From the NCBI GenBank assembly GCA_041650295.1, contig JBAZLM010000003.1, positions 2,933 to 66,932 of the forward strand: DNA of 64,000 bases, written 5' to 3'. The notes beneath the pieces were generated by a model, which was given only the letters and a program-made list of their open reading frames with translations, was not told where the DNA came from and did not search any database. This DNA comes from Candidatus Omnitrophota bacterium. GTDB lineage: Bacteria; Omnitrophota; Gorgyraeia; Gygaellales; Profunditerraquicolaceae. This document shows, in pieces, positions 3,869-58,105 of this stretch; positions within the stretch are counted from its first letter, which is position 1; each line of letters begins with the position of its first letter. The translations under genes were made by a program, and so were the position numbers.

Positions 3869-4753
3869 CTAATAAATAACTTTATTCAGCGGATACTCAA
3901 TAATCCCGCAAGCACCAGCTTCTTTTAACTCCGGGATTAATATGCGCACTACTTTCTCATCAATAATTGTCTCAATCGCTACCCAACCGTCATCACTTAA
4001 ACCAGAAATTGTCGGTTTCTTTAAGGCGGGCAACTTGGCAATAACTTTAGCTAAATCTTCTTTTTTGACATTCATCTTTAAGCCAACTTTATCTTCAGCG
4101 GTAATTGCTCCTTCTAAAAGTAAAGCAATCTGCTCCATCTTGGTTTTCTTCCAATTATCTTGATAAGCACTTTTATTGGCTATAAATTGCGTGGTGGATT
4201 CACAAAGTGTAGCAATTTCAGTTAATTTATTAGCCCGCAGAGAGCTGCCAGTTTCCGTAAGCTCGACGATAGCATCGACTAAACCACCGCTTACTTTAAC
4301 TTCTGTAGCACCCCAACTAAATTCTACTTCCACCTTAACTTTATTTTTCTCAAAATAATCTTTGGTAACATTAACTAACTCTGTAGCAATGCGCTTTCCT
4401 TCTAAATCTTTTACTGTTTTTATACCAGAGTCCTGGGGAACCGCTAAAACCCATCTAACCTTACTCATACTTTGTTTAGCGTAAGTTAAGTTACTGACTC
4501 TAACTACATCAGATTTATTCTCTAAGATCCAATCATTACCGGTGATTCCGCAGTCCAATGCCCCATCTTGCACGTAACGCGACATCTCTTGAGCACGCAA
4601 CAAGGTACATTGAATTTCAACATCATCTATCGACGGGAAATAAGAACGCGAACTAGATAAATTCACATTAAATCCGGCTTTTTTAAGCATCTTAAAGGTC
4701 GCCTCTTGCAGGCTACCCTTAGGCAATCCTAATTTTAAAATCTTATCTTTCAC
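3869..4753 (-). CDS. hisG: ATP phosphoribosyltransferase, long form (HisG). The GTG start lies inside a repeat element
   Basis: 294 aa with KLGLPKGSL near the N-terminus and a C-terminal regulatory domain. The start is GTG at 4753-4751 (no in-frame ATG before the conserved motif). Confidence 0.85.
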
Positions 4754-4828
4754 CCCGCACCTTCTCCTTATTTATTCTAAACCCTACCCCTTCTTCAATT
4801 CTAAATACCAAGAAGGTGCGGGGTTCAT
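4751..4828 (-). repeat. Family-1 palindromic start-codon element (copy 1): ATGAACCCCGCACCTTCT...GGAGAAGGTGCGGGGTG
   Basis: Inverted 13-nt arms CCCCGCACCTTCT / AGAAGGTGCGGGG. The terminal GTG is the hisG start. The 5' ATG opens uORF MNPAPSWYLELKKG*. An SD-like GAGGAAAG sits 6 nt upstream of that ATG. Confidence 0.6.
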
Positions 4829-4902: not shown

Positions 4903-7566
4903 TTAGCCAAGCTCTACTGTGATTACATTGAGCTTTTCTTTTGGTAAGCTGGTGATAACTTCGCGCGTAAAAATCAGAAAGCGAGATTTATCAATGCCCA
5001 GATCCTCAGAATTAAGCCAAAGTTTAGCAATGCGGTATTTGCCGACATCCAAACGATTAGAATTCATAAAAACAATCTTTAACTTTCTATTCGCAAAAAC
5101 CCGATTAATACTTATTTTGTCCGTAAACTTAAACTGCTCTGCCGCCAGCTTTGGTTCAATCAACAAGTCACCATCTTTCCCTCGCACTCCAAATGTCTGC
5201 GTAAGCAAAGTAAAAACGAACCAACTAGCCGAACCAGTTAAATATGGGTACATTCCTTGACCAGCTAGATCAAAATACTCCGGCAGACAAGGATAAATTT
5301 TACTTTTAGTAGTGTTAGTGGCCATTTTATACAATGAACTTAATACTTTCCAACCCTCCTGAGCATAACCTTGTTTATATAATGCATAAGCAAACATCAC
5401 CACCATATGACTAAAAACCGCTCCGTTTTCTTTGTTACCGTAAGCAAATGAAAATGCCCGGCCAAAATTATGCTGCTCTTTCTTAAAATCTGTATTTAAA
5501 CGGATCCCTCCTAAAGAAGAATCATACAAATAGCGATGAACATTATTTAAAATTTCTTTAGTTTGTTTAGAGGTAGCCACCGCACTCATAATCGGAAACA
5601 CCTGCGAGGTCAAGGTCATCTGCAGAAGATTTCCTTGTTTACCGTCAATTCTATTTTTACAATTATCATAATAACCGTTAAAGAACCCTTCCTTTAACCA
5701 TTCATTTTTACGGATATGTTCTTTTATCCAAACGGATTTTTCTTTTAAAGAACGACTTAATGCTTCTGTATTTATACGTATTTTTCTACCGGAAAGATTA
5801 CTTTGAGTTTTAGAAAAATAATTTTTTAATATCTTGTGCTTTTGCGCAATATTCTGATAATTAAAATCGGTGAATAAAATCTTTAACTCTTGCGCCACTT
5901 CGATATCTTTGCGGCTGCATTTTTTTAACAGTTGCGCTAAAGTTTCCAGATTTTGCGCATACATCGCCGAAAAAGTTACGCTTTCGCCATGCTCTTTAGC
6001 CATATCCAAACCATCATTCCAATCAGCGCCTTCTAAACGAATATGATTATGCGCACCGACATTATAAAACTGCACTAAATTTTGCACCAACAGATGTTCT
6101 AAAATTGTACCCTGATAAATTTTACCATTTCTTGTTTTTAATTGATTACCGTAAGTCTGACTCCATTTGTAATCAATATCCTTGGTGCGATTAATCTGAT
6201 GATTCCGAAAATACGTGGCCGGTTCAAATAAAATCTTTAAATCGCCAGTTTCTTGAAGATATAAATCCAAGGTAATTAACGGCCAAACTCCGTGATCCAT
6301 CCAAACGCGACTAATATTATTGCGGTCAGCTACGAATTCACCAGAGTTCTTTCCAATAATCGTCGCATTGGACCCGTCAATTTTAACTCCGCAGAAATTA
6401 TTAATTAAAAGTGGTCGCACTGCTTGCGGATTACTAATAATTAAGCCTAAGCAATCTTGCCAAAGATCACGCCAACCCCGACCACCTTTACCATAATCAA
6501 AATCCGGTAAAAATGAACAACCGAAAATTTTACGCAAAGTAGGCTGAATACTTACCCAACGTAACCAATTATCAAAATCTTGATTACCACTGATAACGTC
6601 TAAAACTTTAGACTTACTGGCCCAATAATCCTTAGTCAACTTAAAATGCTTTTCAACTTTCGCATTACTGCCGAATTTGTTAATCAAGGAATTTAAATTA
6701 CAATCGTTTTGACCAATTCCCATAAGAATAATATAAGTCGCCTGAGAGTTAGGTGCTAAAGTAACTTTGGCAAAACGCAGTGCCCCCATCGGCTCTTTAC
6801 CCTGAATAAATTTCTTTTGAGAAAGCTGATTTTGAAAAACAGCCTCTGGAGATTCTAAGTCCCCAGAATCTCCACAAAAAATTTCCTGCGTTGGATAAAT
6901 ATATTGTGGACCACGACCACCCTGATTACAACCGGCCACAAAATAAACCGTATCGTTGGGCCGATGACCAGATTCATCAAAAAGCAAAGTCGGCTTAACT
7001 TTAATTCCATATTTTTCAGTTTTAATTCTAGTTAATAACGATGTAACTTGACGGTGATCACGCAAATTATCCGCGCTACGTGCATACATGGGAATCGCTG
7101 CATAAGGAATAAAGCTAATTGATTTTTTGCTAATATTAGTAAGTTTAACTTGCATTACTTCTAAAGCATCGTTACAGGCGGGCACAAAAGATAAGATTTC
7201 AGATTTTAAACCAACTGATTTATTCTTGCGACTAACCTTTTGCCAAAGTTGTCCGGCAGATAATTTAAATTTATCCTGTTTTAACTGTTTAAGGTTTTTA
7301 GAAACCCCGGTAGCCGACCAGATCTTTTCTTGATTAACATAAACCCAGAAATTACGTGAGGCCCTAGAAAGTGAAAGGCTAGCTCTGGAGGCTGGTTCAA
7401 ACAAAAAGCTATTGTGGCTACTCTTAATATCACCACTTAAATCAGCCGATATCGACGACATTAAACCCTGATTGCAAAGTGGCAGATGCAGTGACTTTAT
7501 TTTATTAGCAACAAATGATTCAAAGCTGCCCGAATCATCAATAAATTTGTATAGATTATTAGACAT
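4903..7566 (-). CDS. Large (alpha/alpha)6-barrel glycoside phosphorylase/hydrolase, GH94/GH65-like (cellobiose-phosphorylase-like)
   Basis: 887 aa with GWRDLWQDCLG and GADWNDGLD motifs, reminiscent of GH94-type phosphorylases. No signal peptide. Confidence 0.5.
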   Translation of the reverse strand: MSNNLYKFIDDSGSFESFVANKIKSLHLPLCNQGLMSSISADLSGDIKSSHNSFLFEPASRASLSLSRASRNFWVYVNQEKIWSATGVSKNLKQLKQDKFKLSAGQLWQKVSRKNKSVGLKSEILSFVPACNDALEVMQVKLTNISKKSISFIPYAAIPMYARSADNLRDHRQVTSLLTRIKTEKYGIKVKPTLLFDESGHRPNDTVYFVAGCNQGGRGPQYIYPTQEIFCGDSGDLESPEAVFQNQLSQKKFIQGKEPMGALRFAKVTLAPNSQATYIILMGIGQNDCNLNSLINKFGSNAKVEKHFKLTKDYWASKSKVLDVISGNQDFDNWLRWVSIQPTLRKIFGCSFLPDFDYGKGGRGWRDLWQDCLGLIISNPQAVRPLLINNFCGVKIDGSNATIIGKNSGEFVADRNNISRVWMDHGVWPLITLDLYLQETGDLKILFEPATYFRNHQINRTKDIDYKWSQTYGNQLKTRNGKIYQGTILEHLLVQNLVQFYNVGAHNHIRLEGADWNDGLDMAKEHGESVTFSAMYAQNLETLAQLLKKCSRKDIEVAQELKILFTDFNYQNIAQKHKILKNYFSKTQSNLSGRKIRINTEALSRSLKEKSVWIKEHIRKNEWLKEGFFNGYYDNCKNRIDGKQGNLLQMTLTSQVFPIMSAVATSKQTKEILNNVHRYLYDSSLGGIRLNTDFKKEQHNFGRAFSFAYGNKENGAVFSHMVVMFAYALYKQGYAQEGWKVLSSLYKMATNTTKSKIYPCLPEYFDLAGQGMYPYLTGSASWFVFTLLTQTFGVRGKDGDLLIEPKLAAEQFKFTDKISINRVFANRKLKIVFMNSNRLDVGKYRIAKLWLNSEDLGIDKSRFLIFTREVITSLPKEKLNVITVELG

Positions 7567-15259: not shown

Positions 15260-15849
15260 GATTTTCTAATTTTTAAGAAATTGAAAAAACCTAATAATAA
15301 ACCGATTACTAAAAGTGCCCCGGAAGGCATACCAAAAACAAATGCCGGTTCAAATCCCGGAATTAAAGTATGGCTAAAAATCTGCCCAGCACCTAAAAAT
15401 TCCCTAATTGCTGAAATAAGTACCAGAGCCAAAGTAAACCCCACCCCCATTCCTAAACCATCTAAAAAAGATTTGAGCAAATTGTTCTTACAAGCAAATG
15501 CCTCGGCACGACCTAAAACTATACAATTAACTACAATTAAAGGAACATATATGCCTAAAGCCCGATCCAGTACCGGACTATAAGCTTTTAGAATTAATTC
15601 AATTATCGTAACAAAAGTAGCAATGATGACAATAAAGCAAGGAATACGTATCTTATTAGGAATAAAATTCTTTACTAAAGAAATAATTACACTTGAACCC
15701 AAAAGTACAAAAGTCGCAGCTATTCCCATTCCGATCGCATTAACTACCGATACAGAAACTGCTAATGTTGGACACAATCCCAAAGCCAAAACAAATGTGG
15801 GATTTTCTTTAATTATGCCTTTAGTAAATTCCTTAATTAAATTCTTCAC
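15256..15849 (-). CDS. rnfE: Rnf complex subunit E. The GTG start lies inside a repeat element
   Basis: The N-terminus aligns with E. coli RsxE (LGLCPTLAV; NCIVLGRAEAFA). Confidence 0.85.
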   Translation of the reverse strand: MKNLIKEFTKGIIKENPTFVLALGLCPTLAVSVSVVNAIGMGIAATFVLLGSSVIISLVKNFIPNKIRIPCFIVIIATFVTIIELILKAYSPVLDRALGIYVPLIVVNCIVLGRAEAFACKNNLLKSFLDGLGMGVGFTLALVLISAIREFLGAGQIFSHTLIPGFEPAFVFGMPSGALLVIGLLLGFFNFLKIRKS

Positions 15850-15931
15850 CCCGCACCTTCTCCTATATTATTAATTAATTTTAACCCTCACTCCTTCCAA
15901 CAATTGAGTTCAAAGAAAGTGCGGGGTTCAT
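15847..15931 (-). repeat. Family-1 palindromic start-codon element (copy 2) at the rnfD|rnfE junction
   Basis: ATGAACCCCGCACTTTCTTTG...GGAGAAGGTGCGGGGTG. The uORF ATG overlaps the rnfD TGA (ATGA). The terminal GTG is the rnfE start. Confidence 0.6.
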
Positions 15932-25609: not shown

Positions 25610-27619
25610 CTATTCATTAATTAATTGTTTAATCTCATCTAAATGCTTACGCGCTTCAGCTTCACCGCGGCGGGCAAACTCATCGGCTTTATGTAGCTCT
25701 AACCAAAACAAACCGGTAGTATCCGGATGTAAAACAATGTCTGCCAACTCCCCTTCACGCCGAGCAACTTCCGATTGCAAAACCTCAACGCTACTAAAAA
25801 TAATATCAACAATATTTAAATTCAAAATACCCTTTAACCAACTAAAAAAATTAAAACCTTTTTGCAACTGATTAGCTTGACCAACCGCAGGAATAGTTTC
25901 TTTAAGCCTAGCCAGCTGTTTTAAAATATCTTCCCGCGATGGAGTAACATTAACGGCAATAATCTTTCTAATCCCCATCTGCATCAAAGGCTCAGTCGGT
26001 AGAGGATAAGTTACCCCTCCATCAAAAAGGATCTCTTCTTTAAATTTAAAAGGTGCAAAGACCCCCGGCATCGAACAGCTGGCCATTATAGCATCAACCA
26101 GCAAACCTTTATCAAAAATTTTTGGTTCTTTTTTGTGCACATTGCTAGCAATTATCTTTAAAGGCAACTTTACATCATAAAAAGTTTTATCCCCGAACTG
26201 CTTTTTTAAAAAACGGTACAACTTATTACCTTTAATAAAACCAAAACGCGGGAAAGTTATATCAATTAATCCCCAAATGTGCTTAGGCTCTTTAAATTCT
26301 CTAATAATATCTAGAATTTCACCGCTACTTTTACCAATTGCCCAAAGACTAGCAATTAAAGAACCAATACTAGAGCCAACGATTGTATCGATGGGTATCT
26401 TTTCTTCTTCAATAACTTTTAACACCCCCACATGACAAAAACCATAGCCCACCCCTACCCCTAAAACTAAGCCAACCTGACAATCACCGAGGTTTCTAGC
26501 GATTCTTCTCACCGCTTTAGAGTATTCACTATCCGGTTGATCGATAATTTGCCGATCAGGAGCTTGAGATTCTATTTTAGGAATAGTGGCAAAGATATCC
26601 TGGCCTAAAATATCCAATTGATCGCTATGATTAATTTTGGCCAATTTATATTCATTAACAATAGTAATAATTTTTTTCGCATCAAAATTAAAATCATTCT
26701 CTAAACGACTAATTAAATTGTTGGTACGCTTTAAATCTAAAGGATCCGGACTAGTCAGGATATGGATAAGATCGGACTGGTTGAGGATGGTAATCATAGC
26801 CTGATCCATCGCCACAGGCAAATCTAAAATAATATAATGATAATCATTCACCAGAATGCTAACTATCTCAATTAATCTTTTAAGGCAAGCAGGATTATTC
26901 TCCTGATAATAAAAACAAAATAAGTCTATACCAAAGCTACTTTTTAAAAGATAGTCTTTTGGTAAAGTATAGATATCCGAAGCAGTGGATAAATCAAAGA
27001 TTGGCGGTTGCTCTATCCCCAATTTAGCCGGTAAAGAGTGTGGTCTACCGCAAGGCAAGATATCTAAAATAATCACTGATTTATGCGTTTCGCGATTTAA
27101 ACTTAAGCCCAAATTTAAAGCATAAATAGTTTTCCCCGCTTGAGCATAAGAACTAAAAATAGAGATAACTGTGCTTTCAAAGATTTTTTTCTGATGCACA
27201 TCTTTATGTTTAAGGCGTCGACTTAACGTCCGACTTAAATCAATTGCCAGATGAGGAATTTTTTGTAAAACATCATCAAAATCTTCTTTTTTAATTACCA
27301 AAATAACACAATCGTTAATCGCTTCACTAGTCACCGAGTGCGCTTCACTAGTTAACAATGAAATAATCCCAAAATATTTACCGCGATGTAAATACTCTAA
27401 AACTGATTGCTTGCCATTTTGATCTTTGGTATAAATCTGCACTCGGCCAGAGATAATGCAATAAAAAGCGCAAGGGTTAGCCCCTTGCGCATAAATAATT
27501 TGCCCCTTGCGATATTCAACGATCTGACTTTTAGCGTTAATTATTGCCAGCTGGCCTTTACTTAGACCAGCAAAAAAAGGTAATTCTTTTATAATAAATT
27601 CTTTATCTTTGGGATTCAC
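25610..27619 (-). CDS. Cyclic-nucleotide-binding (CAP effector) domain / ParA-MinD-like NTPase-like / patatin-like phospholipase fusion protein. The GTG start lies inside a repeat element
   Basis: N-terminal cNMP-binding beta-barrel (GQIIYAQGANPCAFYCIISGRVQIY...YFGIISLL). The central region resembles deviant ParA/MinD (SYAQAGKT). The C-terminus is patatin with GxGxxG and GSSIGS (GxSxG). Confidence 0.65.
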   Translation of the reverse strand: MNPKDKEFIIKELPFFAGLSKGQLAIINAKSQIVEYRKGQIIYAQGANPCAFYCIISGRVQIYTKDQNGKQSVLEYLHRGKYFGIISLLTSEAHSVTSEAINDCVILVIKKEDFDDVLQKIPHLAIDLSRTLSRRLKHKDVHQKKIFESTVISIFSSYAQAGKTIYALNLGLSLNRETHKSVIILDILPCGRPHSLPAKLGIEQPPIFDLSTASDIYTLPKDYLLKSSFGIDLFCFYYQENNPACLKRLIEIVSILVNDYHYIILDLPVAMDQAMITILNQSDLIHILTSPDPLDLKRTNNLISRLENDFNFDAKKIITIVNEYKLAKINHSDQLDILGQDIFATIPKIESQAPDRQIIDQPDSEYSKAVRRIARNLGDCQVGLVLGVGVGYGFCHVGVLKVIEEEKIPIDTIVGSSIGSLIASLWAIGKSSGEILDIIREFKEPKHIWGLIDITFPRFGFIKGNKLYRFLKKQFGDKTFYDVKLPLKIIASNVHKKEPKIFDKGLLVDAIMASCSMPGVFAPFKFKEEILFDGGVTYPLPTEPLMQMGIRKIIAVNVTPSREDILKQLARLKETIPAVGQANQLQKGFNFFSWLKGILNLNIVDIIFSSVEVLQSEVARREGELADIVLHPDTTGLFWLELHKADEFARRGEAEARKHLDEIKQLINE

Positions 27620-27694
27620 TCCGCACCTTCTTCTTTATTCGCTACCTAACCCGCACCTCTTAATATATAAATACAAAGAAGATGCGGGGTTCAT
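27617..27694 (-). repeat. Family-1 palindromic start-codon element (copy 3)
   Basis: ATGAACCCCGCATCTTCTTTG...AGAAGAAGGTGCGGAGTG. The uORF ATG directly follows the GH1 TAA (TAAATG). The terminal GTG is the start of the downstream gene. Confidence 0.55.
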
Positions 27695-32945: not shown

Positions 32946-33572
32946 TTATTGATGCTCCTCTAAAAACTTTTGTAAATCTTTAGCTAAAGGTGCTTCTATA
33001 GTCACTAGTTTTGCCGTTTGTGGATGCTCAAACTCTAAATGTTGAGCATGTAAACAAACTCTTTTGGCCCGCAAAGCAAAATCTTTACGAAAAACAAATT
33101 TATCTTCCCCAACCAGAGGATGACCAATTCCTTTAAAATGAATACGAATCTGATTAGTTCTACCAGTAACCGGAGAGATCTCTACTACACAATAATTACT
33201 TTTTTGTTCTATAATTTTATATTTTGTAATCGCACTCTTACCTTCAATCGCTACGCTAATCGTTCCTTGAGCATGCGCTAATTTTCCGTGCACAAAAGCA
33301 AAATACTTTTTACTAACCTGGCGATTTCTAAAAGCATCCGCCATTTTAGCTTCTATGGCTTTAGATTTAGCATAAATAACTAACCCGGAAGTATCGCGAT
33401 CCAACCGATGACAAGGATAAAGCTGATAAACTAACCCTCTGTCTTTAGCGTCTTGATTTAAAATACTGGTTAACGTGCGCGATTCATTTTTTGGCGTCGG
33501 TACGCATAACAAGCCCGCCGGCTTGTCTACAATCAAAAGATAATCATCTTCAAAAACAATCGGAATATTCAC
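32946..33572 (-). CDS. RluA-family pseudouridine synthase. The GTG start lies inside a repeat element
   Basis: HRLDRDTSGLVIYAK catalytic motif. 208 aa. Confidence 0.75.
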   Translation of the reverse strand: MNIPIVFEDDYLLIVDKPAGLLCVPTPKNESRTLTSILNQDAKDRGLVYQLYPCHRLDRDTSGLVIYAKSKAIEAKMADAFRNRQVSKKYFAFVHGKLAHAQGTISVAIEGKSAITKYKIIEQKSNYCVVEISPVTGRTNQIRIHFKGIGHPLVGEDKFVFRKDFALRAKRVCLHAQHLEFEHPQTAKLVTIEAPLAKDLQKFLEEHQ

Positions 33573-33643
33573 CCAGCACCTTCTCTTTATTCATCTAACC
33601 CTACATCTTCTATATTTAAATATCAAGAAAGTGCGGGGTTCAT
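33570..33643 (-). repeat. Family-1 palindromic start-codon element (copy 4)
   Basis: ATGAACCCCGCACTTTCTTGA...GAGAAGGTGCTGGGTG. The uORF ATG overlaps the nadA TAA (TAATG). Confidence 0.55.
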
Positions 33644-38263: not shown

Positions 38264-39220
38264 TTACCGGCAGTGCATTAGATCCCCGCTACTCACTTTT
38301 ATCATCACTCCGGAATCCTTGCGAATCAGCAATGCTCCGTCAATATCGATATCTTGCGCCATCCCCTCAATATGTTTATCCTGGCAGTATACTTTAACCC
38401 GCTTACCCAAAGTAAGCCCAAAATGACGCCACTTCTCTACAATGGCCATATTCCCTTTTTTCTCTAATAAAAAATAATTCTCCTCTAATCTAAACAAAAG
38501 CTCCTGTAATAGCGTTACCCGGTTAACCGGTTGATCCAGCTGCTCTCTTAATGAAGTGGCTTGAGCAATTAAAGACTTCTTATCGTTATTCACATTTAGA
38601 CCGATTCCGATGACAATAAAATTAACTTTATCTACTTCAGCGTTCATCTCCGTTAAAATTCCGGCTAATTTCTTATTATGAATTAATACATCATTGGGCC
38701 ATTTAATCTGACTATCGATATCGCAAACCTCCTTTACCGCTTCACAGATACTCACCGCACTCAAAAGAGTTAAAATTGGTGAAACCGCTGGGGCAATCTT
38801 TGGTCTTAGAATTAATGAAAGGTAAATTCCTTTATATTTTGGCGAAGACCACTCTCTACCTAATCTGCCTCTGCCTTTAGTCTGTGATTCCGCTAATACC
38901 AAAGTTCCGCTAGCTGCTCCCTGCATCCCCAACTCCATCGCTAAATTCATCGTAGAATTTAAATAATCAAAATATTTAATTTTTTTACCGATAAACTTGG
39001 TGCGTAGATTACGTAAAACTTCAAAAGGAAAGAGCCGATCCGGACAAGACTGTAAACGATAACCCAAATGCGGCACTGCTTCAATTTCATAACCAGAATC
39101 TTTTAATTCCTGAATATGTTTCCACAACCCCTGACGACTAATCCCTAAATTCTTACTGATCTGATCGCCAGAAAGATAATCGTGTTCTTTACTTAGATAA
39201 TCGAGTATTTTTTCTTTCAC
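38264..39220 (-). CDS. birA: Bifunctional biotin-[acetyl-CoA-carboxylase] ligase / biotin operon repressor. The GTG start lies inside a repeat element
   Basis: N-terminal HTH (LSGDQISKNLGISRQGLWKHI) plus the BPL catalytic domain (GRGRLGREW). Confidence 0.8.
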   Translation of the reverse strand: MKEKILDYLSKEHDYLSGDQISKNLGISRQGLWKHIQELKDSGYEIEAVPHLGYRLQSCPDRLFPFEVLRNLRTKFIGKKIKYFDYLNSTMNLAMELGMQGAASGTLVLAESQTKGRGRLGREWSSPKYKGIYLSLILRPKIAPAVSPILTLLSAVSICEAVKEVCDIDSQIKWPNDVLIHNKKLAGILTEMNAEVDKVNFIVIGIGLNVNNDKKSLIAQATSLREQLDQPVNRVTLLQELLFRLEENYFLLEKKGNMAIVEKWRHFGLTLGKRVKVYCQDKHIEGMAQDIDIDGALLIRKDSGVMIKVSSGDLMHCR

Positions 39221-39297
39221 CCCGCACCTTCTAATTATTCATTAATCTTAAACCACCGCGCCTTCTAATATTATTCAAAAGAAGGTGCGGGGTTCAT
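39218..39297 (-). repeat. Family-1 palindromic start-codon element (copy 5)
   Basis: ATGAACCCCGCACCTTCTTTTGAATAA...TTAGAAGGTGCGGGGTG. The uORF ATG overlaps the upstream TGA (ATGA). Confidence 0.6.
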
Positions 39298-40358: not shown

Positions 40359-41490
40359 GTAGTTTTTTAACCACGGGAGGTAATTTTTCTAACAGATAAT
40401 CAATATCACTTTCGGTGGTCCAGCGACCCAGAGTTATTCTTAAAGATCCATGAGCAGTTCCATGATCTAAACCAATCGCTAATAAAACATGTGAAGGCTC
40501 TAAAGAGCTCGAGGTACAGGCTGAACCGGTGGAGCAAGCGATCCCCAGCATGTCTAGGCTTAAAAGCATCGACTCCCCTTCAATATATTTAATCGAAAAA
40601 TTGACATTATTGGGTAAACGTTTAGTCGCGTGGCCATTAAGAATAACTTCGGGAATCTTTAAAGGAATCTCTTTAATTAATCTATCCCTTAAAGCACTTT
40701 GCAATTTAATTTCATCTTTCATATTCTTTTGACAAAGCTCAACTGCTTTAGCCAGACCAACTATCCCCGGAATATTGTGTGTAGAACCTCGTCTACCTCT
40801 CTCTTGGTCACCACCGCGCATAAAAGTCTCTAAACGTGTACCTTTGCGAATATACAAAGCACCCACACCTTTGGGACCATAAAATTTATGCGCCGCTAAT
40901 GATAATAGATCAACATTGAGCTCATTTACATTTATCGGGATATGACCCACTGTCTGCACAGCATCCGTATGAAAATAAATTCCTTTTTCTTTAGCAATTT
41001 TTCCCAAAATTTCAATTGGCTGCAATGTTCCAATTTCATTATTAGCGTGCATAATACTAATTAGAATAGTTTTGTCGGTAATCGCCTTTTTTAAATCTTC
41101 CGGCAAAACTAAACCATCTTTATCCACTCCTAAATAAGTAACTTGAAAACCTTTTTTTTCTAAAAACTTTAACGGCTCGCTAATCGCATGGTGCTCAATC
41201 GCTGAGGTAATAATATGGTTGCCTTTTTTTTCTAAAGCATAAGCCACACCCATAATCGCATAATTATCCGACTCAGTTCCCCCAGAAGTAAAAACGATCT
41301 CTTCGGGTTTAGCGCCGATAAAATCTGCCAAAGTTTGTCGACTATCCTCTAGAGCTTTCTTAGCTTCTTGTCCATAGGCATGCAAGCTAGAAGCATTACC
41401 AAATTTTTCAAAAAAATACGGCTCCATCGCTTTTAAAACTAACGGATCAGTGGGTGTAGTTGCCGCATAATCTAAATATACTTTCTTCAC
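40327..41490 (-). CDS. iscS: Cysteine desulfurase (IscS/NifS). The GTG start lies inside a repeat element
   Basis: SGGTESDN, the PLP Lys region SLAAHKFYGPKG, and active-site SSGSACTS. Confidence 0.85.
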   Translation of the reverse strand: MKKVYLDYAATTPTDPLVLKAMEPYFFEKFGNASSLHAYGQEAKKALEDSRQTLADFIGAKPEEIVFTSGGTESDNYAIMGVAYALEKKGNHIITSAIEHHAISEPLKFLEKKGFQVTYLGVDKDGLVLPEDLKKAITDKTILISIMHANNEIGTLQPIEILGKIAKEKGIYFHTDAVQTVGHIPINVNELNVDLLSLAAHKFYGPKGVGALYIRKGTRLETFMRGGDQERGRRGSTHNIPGIVGLAKAVELCQKNMKDEIKLQSALRDRLIKEIPLKIPEVILNGHATKRLPNNVNFSIKYIEGESMLLSLDMLGIACSTGSACTSSSLEPSHVLLAIGLDHGTAHGSLRITLGRWTTESDIDYLLEKLPPVVKKLRAMSPLYEEK

Positions 41491-41566
41491 CCCGCACCTT
41501 CTCTCTATTAATTAACTCTTACCCTACGCCTTCTAATGTCTAATTTAACGAAGGTGCGGGGTTCAT
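41488..41566 (-). repeat. Family-1 palindromic start-codon element (copy 6)
   Basis: ATGAACCCCGCACCTTCGTTAAATTAG...GAGAAGGTGCGGGGTG. Its ATG overlaps the TGA of a 7-codon mini-ORF that begins at the GTG of the adjacent family-2 element. Confidence 0.6.
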
Positions 41567-41582
41567 CTCTTAATTACCTCAT

Positions 41583-41654
41583 TCACCACGTTAGAAACAG
41601 GTTGTCGCAGACAACCGTAAATTATCTTTTTGCCTTGTTTCTAACGAGGTTCAT
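41583..41654 (-). repeat. Family-2 palindromic element (copy a), 72 nt, fused in-frame onto the 3' end of the PP-loop ATPase gene
   Basis: ATGAACCTCGTTAGAAACAAGG...GGTTGTCTGCGACAACCTGTTTCTAACGTGGTGAAT. It shares its termini with family 1. The upstream ORF reads through ...SMNLVRNKAKR* inside it. Confidence 0.6.
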
Positions 41655-55950: not shown

Positions 55951-57434
55951 GATTTTTTTAAGGCTCTAATTAACGCTTCTTCGAAAAGTTCAACCCCTAA
56001 ATCAATCTCTTCTTCCGTAATATAAAAAGAAGGTGCAATGGTAAAGACGTTTTTATAATAACCACCAACGTCTAAAATTAAACCTCGGCGTTTTCCTTTT
56101 ACATCTAAAGAACCGCTTAAACCTAAATTAACAATCTTATCGGTGAGCTCTTTATTAGGCGTATAGCCGTCTTTTTCGCAGATCTCCATACGCAAAGCCA
56201 AACCAATTCCATCAACATCACCGATCTGAGGATATTTTTTCTGTAATTTCTTAAGTTGATCAATAAAATAACGACCTTTTTTAGGGATCGATAATGCAAA
56301 ATCAGACTCTTCAATTAATTTCATCACCGCCAACCCCGCAGTTGTCCCCAAGGTATTAGAGGAAAATGTCGCATGAGTAGAACCCGGAGGAAAAACATCC
56401 GGATTAATTAATTTCTCTTTAGCCCAGATTCCGCTAATCGGATTTAACCCATTAGTTAGTGCTTTACCAAAAACAATGATATCCGGGGTAATATTAAAAT
56501 GCTCAATCGCCCAGAACTTTCCCGTGCGGAAAAATCCCATTTGGATCTCATCGTCCACAAAAAGAATTCCGTAGCGATCTAAAATTTCTTTTAGTTTAGA
56601 ATAATACTCTTGCGGTGGAACAATATAACCACCAGTACCTTGAATCGCTTCAGCATAAAAAGCGGCAAACTCACATTTATTATTCTTCTTATTCACCACT
56701 GAATAATATTCAGTCTCAAAAAGTCTTTCAAACTGTTTTAAACAATATAAATCACAAAAATCTCTTTTCTTATCATATGGACATCTAAAACAATACGGAT
56801 ATGGAATAAACATTGCCCGGTCTCCAAAATGACCGAAACGTTCCCTATATCTAAAACTCGAGGTAATCGCCGAAGCCGCTAATGTCCTCCCGTGATAACC
56901 ACCCATAAAAGCAAAAACCAAACTTCTACCAGTATTATTACGCACTAACTTTAATGAATCCTCTAAAGCACTGGAACCTCCGACATTAAAATGAATTCTC
57001 CCTTTCTCTTCAAAAGTCCGCTGATTTTTCTGAGCTAATTTTGTTGCTAACTCAATTTTTTCAGTATGCAAATACTGGCAAGCTAGTTGTGGTAAGGTAT
57101 CGATTTGCTTTTTTAATGCTTCATTGAGTTGAGGATTACCATAACCAAAGTTCACCGCTGAATACCACATCTGCAAATCTAAAAATTCTGTCCCTTGATC
57201 ATCATAAAGATAGCTACCATGAGAGCGCTTAAATATATTTAACTTTTCCGCATAATGCACGGTATCTCCCCAAGAGCAATATTTTGCTTCCAGATCAAGC
57301 AACTCATTATGCGTAATATTCTTTTTAATTTTAGCACTTCTCTTAATCATCGCTTTTGAATTCACCCCGTTAGAAACAGGTTGCCAGAGGCAACCGTGGG
57401 GCTTCTCTTTTATCTTATTTCTAACGGGGTTCAT
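55947..57434 (-). CDS. Class-III PLP-dependent aminotransferase. The N-terminal 26 codons are encoded by a family-2 repeat element (true start may be the internal GTG or ATG)
   Basis: DDEIQMGFFRTGKFWA and FGKALTNG (PLP-Lys) motifs. The track ORF begins at the element's ATG: MNPVRNKIKEKPHGCLWQPVSNGVNS. Confidence 0.7.
   Translation of the reverse strand: MNPVRNKIKEKPHGCLWQPVSNGVNSKAMIKRSAKIKKNITHNELLDLEAKYCSWGDTVHYAEKLNIFKRSHGSYLYDDQGTEFLDLQMWYSAVNFGYGNPQLNEALKKQIDTLPQLACQYLHTEKIELATKLAQKNQRTFEEKGRIHFNVGGSSALEDSLKLVRNNTGRSLVFAFMGGYHGRTLAASAITSSFRYRERFGHFGDRAMFIPYPYCFRCPYDKKRDFCDLYCLKQFERLFETEYYSVVNKKNNKCEFAAFYAEAIQGTGGYIVPPQEYYSKLKEILDRYGILFVDDEIQMGFFRTGKFWAIEHFNITPDIIVFGKALTNGLNPISGIWAKEKLINPDVFPPGSTHATFSSNTLGTTAGLAVMKLIEESDFALSIPKKGRYFIDQLKKLQKKYPQIGDVDGIGLALRMEICEKDGYTPNKELTDKIVNLGLSGSLDVKGKRRGLILDVGGYYKNVFTIAPSFYITEEEIDLGVELFEEALIRALKKS
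57363..57434 (-). repeat. Family-2 palindromic element (copy b), 72 nt, in-frame with the aminotransferase
   Basis: ATGAACCCCGTTAGAAATAAG...GGTTGCCTCTGGCAACCTGTTTCTAACGGGGTGAAT. The ATG overlaps the upstream HAD-gene TGA (ATGA). Confidence 0.6.
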
Positions 57435-58105
57435 GATAATTTCCTTTTTAAATAAACTAACACGTCTTTAAGGTTATTAAAAGCCATATAATCTAATTTA
57501 CTTTCTTTAAGATGCCTGAGCAAATGATCTTTAGCAAAGATAATGTGGGCATGTTTTGCAGGGCAAGCATCTGATTCTCCGTCGCCAACATAAACTATAG
57601 TACTATCTTTTTTTGCTTTAGCCAAAAGATTCTTGGTTTTACAATGTGCACAGATCTGACAATCTTTATTTTTAAAAGGGTAATCAGTAATTAATTTAGT
57701 TTTAGAAAAACGCAGTTTATTAGCATAAACCTTAAGATCCTTAATCTTATTAATCTTTAGAATTCGATTAATTATATAATCATAATTATCACTTAATATA
57801 TAAGTTTTAACTTTCTTTACACGTAAAAATTGATAGACCGGCTTAAAATAAGTATCTAATTTTATTTTTGATAGATAGGCATCCAAAGCTTTAACATTTA
57901 AATCCATCCCCCTGAGTTGACCCTCTAAACAGGTTTTAGAACCAATCCTACCACTCTTCCAGCGCTTTTCTAATTCTACCCAACGGTCATCCTTAGAAAA
58001 AAGTAAAAGCATATTGTCAAAAACATCACAAGTAGCAATAGTATTATCAAAATCAAAAAACACCACGCACTTTTTTGGATTCAACTGCATATTTTTATCT
58101 AACAT
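57431..58105 (-). CDS. HAD-superfamily phosphatase-like protein
   Basis: DFDNT (DxDxT) motif I. 224 aa. Confidence 0.5.
   Translation of the reverse strand: MLDKNMQLNPKKCVVFFDFDNTIATCDVFDNMLLLFSKDDRWVELEKRWKSGRIGSKTCLEGQLRGMDLNVKALDAYLSKIKLDTYFKPVYQFLRVKKVKTYILSDNYDYIINRILKINKIKDLKVYANKLRFSKTKLITDYPFKNKDCQICAHCKTKNLLAKAKKDSTIVYVGDGESDACPAKHAHIIFAKDHLLRHLKESKLDYMAFNNLKDVLVYLKRKLS

Follow-up and report, generated by a model that had tools for sequence, protein, structure and literature searches.

Transposable elements of the miniature inverted-repeat type (MITEs), such as the Correia elements of Neisseria, ERIC and Nezha, are small, end in inverted repeats, duplicate their target sites, occur in many copies, encode no transposase, are co-transcribed and can alter expression. 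Repetitive extragenic palindromes (REPs) lie outside genes and are not known to be flanked by target duplications. Rickettsia palindromic elements (RPEs) are short, of about 150 bp, and are inserted in-frame within protein genes, whose open reading frame (ORF) is kept (PMC10969869). Here, we analysed a stretch of 64,000 nucleotides, called the window throughout, from a metagenome-assembled genome (MAG) of a Candidatus Omnitrophota bacterium (GenBank assembly GCA_041650295.1, contig JBAZLM010000003.1, positions 2,933 to 66,932 of the forward strand), and in it a palindromic element, copy b of a repeat family that we call family 2, which lies at the start of a class III aminotransferase gene. 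Copy b is a MITE-like miniature inverted-repeat element of 65 bp with terminal inverted repeats of 13–15 bp; it works like an RPE, but is set apart from RPEs by its hosts, its size and its target-site duplication. Almost certainly, it forms a 69-nt in-frame insertion between codons 2 and 3 of the aminotransferase gene, made up of the 65-bp element and a duplicated TGAA. We put the probability of the whole reading, in which copy b was inserted by a transposase acting in trans and is now translated as a part of the aminotransferase, at about 0.75; this is lower than for the insertion alone, because the figure also covers the inferences on read-through and on the transposase.

The features of the locus are the following.

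57365..57429, minus strand: 65-bp palindromic mobile element of family 2 (copy b), with the termini CCCCGTTAGAAAT and GTTTCTAACGGGG; missing from the close relatives L001 and L002
57430..57433, minus strand: left copy of the TGAA target-site duplication, which comprises both the TGA of the upstream HAD gene (57433..57431) and bases 2 and 3 of the ancestral ATG
57361..57364, minus strand: right copy of the TGAA target-site duplication, which with the terminal G of the element (57365) gives GTG-AAT, that is, ancestral codons 1-2 re-created
57379..57395, minus strand: inner hairpin GGTTGCC-TCT-GGCAACC (GGTTGCCTCTGGCAACC), the most conserved part of the family-2 interior, followed by TGTTTCT and flagged as intrinsic-terminator-like
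57432..57434, minus strand: ancestral ATG of the aminotransferase gene, which shares an ATGA with the HAD stop; at the orthologous site L002 has ATGA and L001 has TTGA, each likewise overlapping the HAD gene
57440..57445, minus strand: ancestral Shine-Dalgarno (SD)-like AGGAAA, 7 nt upstream of the ATG and within the 3' end of the HAD gene; identical base for base in L001 and L002
55947..57434, minus strand: class III aminotransferase ORF, 495 aa from the ancestral ATG, that is, the 472-aa orthologue + 23
57348..57350, minus strand: in-frame downstream ATG (MIKRS...), the start in the NCBI annotation, giving a 467-aa product
57431..58105, minus strand: upstream HAD/Put_Phosphatase gene, whose stop codon is preserved by the left TGAA copy

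As stated in the preliminary description of this DNA, a palindromic stretch of 72 nt runs from an ATG to a GTG without an in-frame stop (ATGAACCCCGTTAGAAATAAGATAAAAGAGAAGCCCCACGGTTGCCTCTGGCAACCTGTTTCTAACGGGGTG; 57434..57363 on the minus strand), and its ATG overlaps the TGA of the HAD gene as TCATGA. The string ATGAACCCCG...ACGGGGTG, which covers the same positions, occurs once in the window, with 0 occurrences expected from shuffles. The arms of copy b are perfect over 13 nt (ACCCCGTTAGAAA and TTTCTAACGGGGT), and the stem reaches 15 bp. As RNA, the 72-nt stretch has a minimum free energy of -31.8 kcal/mol (z = -6.0; 0/200 shuffles as stable), and its hairpin sets in 3 nt past the ATG at 57434, while the mRNA of the empty site is essentially unstructured (-11 kcal/mol, z = -1.3). 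The insertion places 23 residues (PVRNKIKEKPHGCLWQPVSNGVN) between Asn2 and Ser3; the ORF now reads MNPVRNKIKEKPHGCLWQPVSNGVNSKAM.

The relatives of the aminotransferase all come from Candidatus Omnitrophota MAGs, are mostly 469–474 aa long and begin with MNSKQL.., MSQKQL.., MTEKEM.. and similar N-termini, which are variable ahead of ..ELLDLEAKYCSWGDTVHY. The four closest orthologues (94–96% amino acid identity) start with MNSKQL or VNLKQM and are 472 aa long, which equals 495 - 23. The peptide encoded by the element was absent from all listed orthologues other than the window's own protein (119/119), in agreement with the earlier view that it is a signature of the element and not of the protein family. 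Homologues from unrelated taxa beginning with MNPVRNK..., which would have spoken for the opposite, were looked for, and none was seen among the listed orthologues.

The DNA of two close relatives, L001 and L002 (94–96% amino acid and 86–88% nucleotide identity), was compared with the window. The order of genes is common to all three loci (ThiI-like, radical SAM, HAD, aminotransferase and a convergent hydrolase), and both relatives have an empty site, ...AGGAAATTAG(A/T)(A/T)TGAAC/TCAAAA. The flanks are equal base for base up to ...TTTAAAAAGGAAATTA, after which the relatives continue with G(T/A)(T/A)TGAAC/TCAAAA, and the window with TCATGAAC-element-GGGGTGAAT/TCAAAA. Over the whole gene, the sole difference in length is a single gap of 69 columns, equal to 65 bp + 4. 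As the site is empty in both relatives, the ATG (TTG in one of them), the AGGAA SD and the 4-nt overlap with the HAD gene predate the insertion. Thus, contrary to what had been described, the element does not begin at the ATG, and the palindrome does not encode the N-terminus in its entirety: the Met codon and the two leading bases of codon 2 come from the ancestral target. The suggestion that the element donates an N-terminal extension was correct in that 23 residues have been added, but they are inserted between codons 2 and 3 (MN, 23 aa, SKAM) and do not make up a 26-residue N-terminus. The ancestral protein, as predicted from the empty sites, began with MN/SK.. Copy b was thus inserted into ATGAA at the aminotransferase start with a 4-bp duplication of TGAA; the left TGAA keeps the HAD stop as well as the ancestral ATG, whose SD is retained too, and the right TGAA, together with the G of the element, rebuilds GTG-AAT.

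An ORF that is open from an ATG preceded by an SD would also be seen if the additional residues were a native, lineage-specific N-terminal extension or signal of the aminotransferase. The probability of that is virtually nil: the peptide is absent even from orthologues that are 94–96% identical, the same DNA is found in unrelated genes and in other phyla, and the alignments to Pfam and PDB entries begin only past the insert (Aminotran_3 at aa 65-488; PDB homologues at residue 33 or later). A HMMER search with the 30-aa N-terminus against 1.84 billion representatives gave 4 matches, all of them unrelated low-complexity repeat proteins, and was uninformative.

The other family-2 copy of the window, copy a, is located in a gene for a PP-loop protein (LarE).

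41586..41649, minus strand: copy a of family 2, 64 bp long owing to a 1-nt deletion, placed in the final codons of the PP-loop (LarE) gene; TGAA at 41650-41653 and 41582-41585
41563..41581, minus strand: displaced relic of the larE 3' end, (AA)T GAG GTA ATT AAG AGA TGA, 19 nt

Removal of copy a with one TGAA predicts that larE had ended ...GGT AGT ATG AAT GAG GTA ATT AAG AGA TGA, and that LarE had 268 aa and the end GSMNEVIKR. Nearly all listed LarE orthologues have 268 aa; the closest, P0122, ends exactly with GSMNEVIKR, and the rest with ...GSLNEVI(N/K/G)(R/K). The match of P0122 to the predicted tail is a second, independent support for insertion with duplication. The present LarE ends at the element's own TAA (..GSMNLVRNKAKR, followed by the stop). 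Copy a is 74% identical to copy b. It had been taken to be exactly equal to it in length and to leave the peptide NPVRNK in the tail of the PP-loop protein, but it is one base shorter (64 vs 65 nt for the element, 71 vs 72 nt from ATG to GTG), and its peptide is NLVRNK. The larE relic lies between copy a and an adjoining copy of another family, family 1, with two elements within 90 bp at the larE/nifS junction.

Family 1, which we characterised within the window only, has the termini (Y)CCCGCACCTTCT / AGAAGGTGCGGG(R); it is CCCGCACCTT-ended and related to the CCCGTTAGAAAC-ended repeats to which family 2 belongs. The window contains two family-2 and seven family-1 copies, the latter at the following positions.

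290-348, 4753-4823, 15849-15926, 27619-27689, 33572-33638, 39220-39292 and 41490-41561: family-1 copies, 7/7 with a perfect 4-nt duplication, which read on the minus strand is TGAA (six copies) or TTGA (one copy)

Six minus-strand ORFs (with ends at 4753, 15849, 27619, 33572, 39220 and 41490) start with a GTG that consists of the last G of the element and the TG of the duplication, and the right arm of family 1 has an SD-like GAAGGTG just upstream of this GTG.

Further copies were sought in two ways. A scan of genomes, one per species, for the exact pattern gave 11 matches, and a scan of metagenomes for the two arms alone gave at least 120 loci, mostly from groundwater and sediment; a scan of viral contigs for the element gave 0 matches. 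The family statistics below cover the copies listed from these exact-arm-pattern scans, which miss divergent members, and the phylum labels of MAGs are those assigned in their records. The superfamily that emerges has the termini A-Y-CCCGTTAGAAAC, with about 14 nt conserved at each end (terminal pair ACCCCGTTAGAAAC ... GTTTCTAACGGGGT) and more than 150 copies with conserved arms, while the interiors are very diverse (105 clusters among 154 listed copies). The 4-nt flanks are identical in 80 of the 116 non-redundant listed copies (permutation mean 8, maximum 17). They are mostly TGAA, TAAA, TCAA or the complements of these, with a purine ahead in about 95% of copies. A duplication of 5 or 6 bp was considered and rejected, as identity is consistent over no more than the central 4 nt. 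The Y/R bases next to these form the outermost pair of the arms and change together (81 C/G and 24 T/A vs 5 mismatched C/A or T/G, and 5 other), and the alignment of family 2 contains compensatory changes in three pairs.

Copy b combines small size and no coding capacity for a transposase with terminal inverted repeats, a duplication verified by empty sites and dispersed, multi-copy occurrence, which are structural properties of a MITE. A transposase acting in trans would recognise the A-Y-CCCGTTAGAAAC termini and cut R/TVAA with a 4-nt stagger. The elements differ from described MITEs in that their interior is extremely diverse, with only about 14 nt per end conserved, and in that the TGAA duplication and the terminal purine systematically regenerate a stop on the left and a start on the right. 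We know of no other MITEs in which the duplication regenerates a stop and a start.

Palindromes with two conserved 14-nt inverted arms around a variable spacer, present in high copy number, able to form hairpins and sometimes arranged in tandem, also resemble REP doublets and REPINs. They could thus be REP/REPIN- or IS200/IS605-type sequences moved by a Y1 enzyme (RAYT/TnpA), in which case the tetranucleotide would be a recognition and cleavage site; the purine that precedes T-V-A-A in most copies and the tandem copies that share a single tetranucleotide would fit. Nevertheless, we consider this very improbable. The tetranucleotide varies between copies, even within one interior subfamily, yet it matches on both sides of each copy, and removal of the element with one tetranucleotide restores the orthologous sequence exactly in two cases. 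Moreover, many copies are intragenic and their duplications are verified by empty sites, which does not agree with the definition of REPs.

The 65-nt element was found in two MAGs labelled Omnitrophota and in others labelled Nitrospirae and Sedimentisphaerales (Planctomycetota), and a shorter copy in one Patescibacteria MAG. One small Saccharibacteria MAG genome (CAZJVK01; L004, L005, L008, L010, L012 and L013) has six copies of a variant of about 118 nt, with the same termini, the same inner hairpin (GGTTGTCTAAAGACAACC) and TGAA, TTTA or TAAA as flanks; several of the Saccharibacteria copies end with ..CGGGATG directly at a gene start. The 65-nt copies in MAGs of different phyla are 72–92% identical in pairs, and copy b is 92% identical to the copy in the metagenome locus L046. 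Such identity across phyla points to either a recent horizontal spread or a common transposase. A search with the element peptides, as a concatenated query, against an index of 5.8 billion proteins returned 52 candidates and 2 matches (P0241 and P0242), which are single examples and no census of the family. In the literature on Omnitrophica palindromes, on MITEs in the candidate phyla radiation (CPR) and on the terminal sequences, we found no paper describing the element.

The elements are concentrated at start codons. Of the 41 copies with TGAA or TGAG as flanks, 37 follow an A and 4 follow a G, and all of them thus read RTG. In 34 of such sites, which we took as the start-codon set, an ORF of at least 80 codons follows. 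Upstream of the left ATG, the open in-frame stretch has a median length of 3 codons and does not exceed 40 codons in 31/34 of these sites, as compared with a median of 72 codons, and 40% of sites with at most 40, in control RTGAR sites with equally long downstream ORFs (n = 1318). This difference from the controls indicates that the elements sit on genuine start codons. Consistent with that, Pfam places the start of the MurG, Ddl and RibBA domains of host genes immediately past the insert, and that of the dihydroorotase domain about 50 residues downstream of it. Target choice and survival after selection, either of which may underlie this bias, are not separable from the sequence. The fate of translation from the left ATG at the 34 sites is set by the insertion length modulo 3. 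Stop-free in-frame fusions make up 8/34, copy b included, and five of these eight have no SD in the element; a leader ORF ends at the right-arm TAA, 4 nt before the regenerated RTG, in 13/34, or at the TGA of the regenerated RTGA in 5/34, and a stop comes earlier in 8/34. Copy b lies exactly in an ATGA stop/start overlap, and many leader ORFs of the family end 4 nt before the regenerated start or overlap it, as in translational coupling at ATGA overlaps. In contrast to split ribosome-binding sites and ATGA coupling, which are fixed features of operons, the arrangement here was made by a mobile element, and the coupling itself is putative.

Copies are also found inside coding frames. The insertion length (element + 4) is divisible by 3 in 80/154 copies and in 57/105 interior clusters (p = 8e-6 vs one third); as the copies are not phylogenetically independent, the test at the level of clusters controls for kinship in part. 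The arms are free of stops in two of three frames on both strands, reading PVRN..VSNG or PLE...LTG, and ten copies lie within ORFs that are open for at least 60 codons on both sides. Four relatives of 53 nt, which form in-frame insertions of 57 nt, are located as follows.

L118:3457-3509: in the alanyl-tRNA synthetase (AlaRS) gene
L133:8895-8947: in the gene of the DNA polymerase III delta' subunit (HolB)
L088:3038-3090: in the trigger factor (Tig) gene
L085 11359-11411, minus strand (reverse-complement count): in the dapF gene

The AlaRS copy lies inside the catalytic domain (insert 320-338 within the Pfam match 7-391), and the HolB insert (90-108) is likewise within the Pfam match (11-187). 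In trigger factor, the copy is between the N and C domains, and in DapF between the two domains, with a second copy at the N-terminus of DapF in the other open frame (TPLE..FLTGFT). P0242, a partial Omnitrophota protein of 88 aa, contains two in-frame copies and the beginning of a third. The copy at ..EEMN/EVII.. in this protein indicates that ATGAA as such is the target, also away from start codons. The family-2 copies of L006 and L007, which come from other phyla, are likewise stop-free insertions of 69 nt behind an ATG; the L007 copy has GCG at its right end, and the start codon is not regenerated there.

In these respects the likeness to RPEs appears close: like an RPE, the element at the aminotransferase start has a length that is a multiple of 3 with its duplication and is free of stops in the predicted frame, and relatives of it are found within AlaRS and HolB and, in Tig and DapF, between domains. 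It differs from RPEs in occurring in MAGs of Omnitrophota, Patescibacteria, Nitrospirae and Planctomycetota, and not in Rickettsia; in its size of 65 bp (44–88 bp in most copies of the family, about 118 in Saccharibacteria) as compared with about 150 bp; and in the clear 4-bp duplications, the strong bias to ATGA(A/G) starts and the SD of some subfamilies.

As to the start codon that is used at copy b, translation would probably begin at the ancestral ATG and proceed through the element, yielding an enzyme of 495 aa. Ribosomes would mainly reinitiate at this ATG after terminating on the overlapping HAD stop. A ribosome that terminates there would already have opened the left arm and melted the hairpin, which favours coupled reinitiation with read-through; it would then read through the element and add 23 hydrophilic residues rich in Pro, Gly and Asn. 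These would fall in the poorly conserved N-terminal tail, outside the region aligned with Pfam and PDB entries. An AlphaFold model of the 495-aa protein, made with an alignment of 33 sequences, had a mean pLDDT (per-residue confidence) of 48 and was too poor to judge the insert. A canonical SD at normal spacing is found only ahead of the ATG at 57434; in the window, an SD-like 4-mer precedes 26/52 long ORFs, as compared with 6.6% of random positions. GGGG directly adjoins the GTG at 57365, which is paired within the stem, and the best motif upstream of the ATG at 57350 is GGGGTG, 14 nt away.

It is, however, conceivable that the element is an untranslated leader or spacer, and that the enzyme begins downstream of it, at the GTG at 57365 (MNSKAM) or the ATG at 57350 (MIKRS). 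An RTG at the right end is inherent in the elements of the family, six family-1 copies of the window lie exactly where ORFs begin with GTG, and 18/34 copies of the start-codon set have a leader ORF that ends at the right-arm TAA or the RTGA, implying a restart. A start at the terminal GTG was also put forward in the preliminary description by analogy with family 1. The analogy holds for the family-1 copies, with the SD-like GAAGGTG in their right arm, but less so for copy b: its right arm has no SD-like motif, unlike that of family 1 or of the subfamily with GGAGG described below, its GTG is base-paired in the stem, and, since the element has no in-frame stop, no terminating ribosome is delivered to the GTG at 57365 or to the ATG at 57350. 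A downstream start, the main rival, is thus rather unlikely at this locus, and translation from the ancestral ATG is preferred.

Several observations weigh against the reading that we prefer. The hairpin of -31.8 kcal/mol, only 3 nt after the ATG at 57434, should hinder de novo initiation there, which also speaks for a downstream start. The NCBI pipeline (PGAP) picked the ATG at 57350: the annotated protein, P0001, is 100% identical, has 467 aa and the N-terminus MIKRSAK, and omits five ancestral residues (MNSKA) together with the insert. A Met at this position is also present in orthologues free of the element, which makes it a possible start. Moreover, as insertion at ATGA always regenerates an RTG at the right end, read-through is not provable from the sequence here. 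With regard to mobility, a screen of 0.94 Mb of loci for arm pairs that are 300-4000 bp apart and enclose no inner partners turned up no transposase or autonomous insertion sequence (IS) with these termini, and shared ancestry of subfamilies could partly explain the excess of insertion lengths divisible by 3.

The structure of copy b could also mean that the element was co-opted as an RNA regulator, making translation of the aminotransferase strictly dependent on that of HAD, or serving as a weak terminator between the two genes, as an RNase III site or as a thermosensor. Its strong structure, as compared with the essentially unstructured mRNA of the empty site, would fit such a function, and so would the compensatory changes that keep the inner hairpin across phyla (C-G to T-A in 3/7 family-2 copies) and the terminator-like pattern formed by the inner hairpin and the UGUUUCU after it. 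This is improbable, however. The element is absent from the 119 other listed orthologues, and both syntenic relatives examined have empty sites; that the insertion is confined, in this set, to the protein cluster of the window is more in keeping with a selfish insertion of recent date than with a regulator under selection. The conservation of the hairpin is explained equally well by recognition by the transposase or by recent spread, the U-tract is interrupted, and no U-run follows the outer stem. Rfam gave only chance-level matches at the element (best E = 1), and at the gathering threshold only tRNAs in the window and five loci. Two structural candidates were rejected by inspection: the conserved cores of a hammerhead-like three-way junction gave no match by eye, and the GTTRRRY and RYYYAAC cores of an integron attC site are in reversed order.

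In programmed bypass, known from T4 gene 60 and the mitochondrial byps, ribosomes hop between matched take-off and landing codons, with a stop or a hairpin at take-off and a nascent-peptide signal. At copy b, the codons AAC and AAT, both for Asn, flank the hairpin, as if ribosomes could hop over it, but no stop follows the take-off codon and no nascent peptide exists at codon 2. We regard such hopping as extremely unlikely and retain reinitiation at the ancestral ATG followed by read-through.

While the single locus is of modest interest, the family behind copy b is of greater interest, being large and, apparently, undescribed. What appears new is its spread across phyla of uncultivated lineages, its concentration on real ATGA(A/G) starts, the rebuilding of both a stop and a start, and the existence of subfamilies that bear an SD or preserve the frame. 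At slightly less than even odds, we propose that the CCCGTTAGAAAC-ended repeats and the CCCGCACCTT-ended family 1 constitute an undescribed cross-phylum class of 'translation-transparent' mobile elements specialised for compact genomes. The targets of such elements would be start/stop junctions of the ATGA(A/G) type along with other R-TVAA sites, where they would rebuild the upstream stop and the downstream start; depending on their length modulo 3, they would give an in-frame fusion or a leader ORF that ends at the arm TAA or at the regenerated RTGA, and many would bring an SD along. Operon junctions, and even essential genes, could then be colonised almost without cost, and proteins of Omnitrophota and CPR bacteria would acquire new peptide segments. 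The family itself would be a second case of the RPE type, independent and much more widespread, in which selfish palindromes serve as coding sequence in housekeeping and essential proteins. As to annotation, start codons in these genomes are affected systematically, and gene callers will mis-set many starts and ends in Omnitrophota and CPR MAGs; in the window, the aminotransferase as called by PGAP is cut down to 467 aa, and the GTG at which six other genes start derives in part from the element and in part from the duplication. The conserved 14-nt termini offer a handle for finding the transposase, and the locus itself is well suited to asking how translation copes with a very stable hairpin only 3 nt past a start codon, obligatory coupling to the upstream gene being one way.

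Two arrangements were noted among the listed copies. Tandem elements that share one tetranucleotide (..CTAACGGGG-TCAA-CCCCGTTAG..) are present at L025:~6003-6400, L060:~1285-1372, L023:~6800-6873, L074:~2140-2228 and L122:254-359, which suggests insertion beside an existing copy or amplification of an array. A subfamily of 18 copies, 51–54 nt long, carries GGAGG, or a motif close to it, about 11 nt ahead of the right-hand RTG (L017, L027, L033, L036, L044, L069, L076, L091, L093, L128, L131 and others). It contains an internal third arm (..CTAACGGGG..), its tabulated copies are at ATGA(A/G), and it has a leader ORF with a length of 16 or 19 codons, for which the right-arm TAA or the regenerated RTGA provides the stop.

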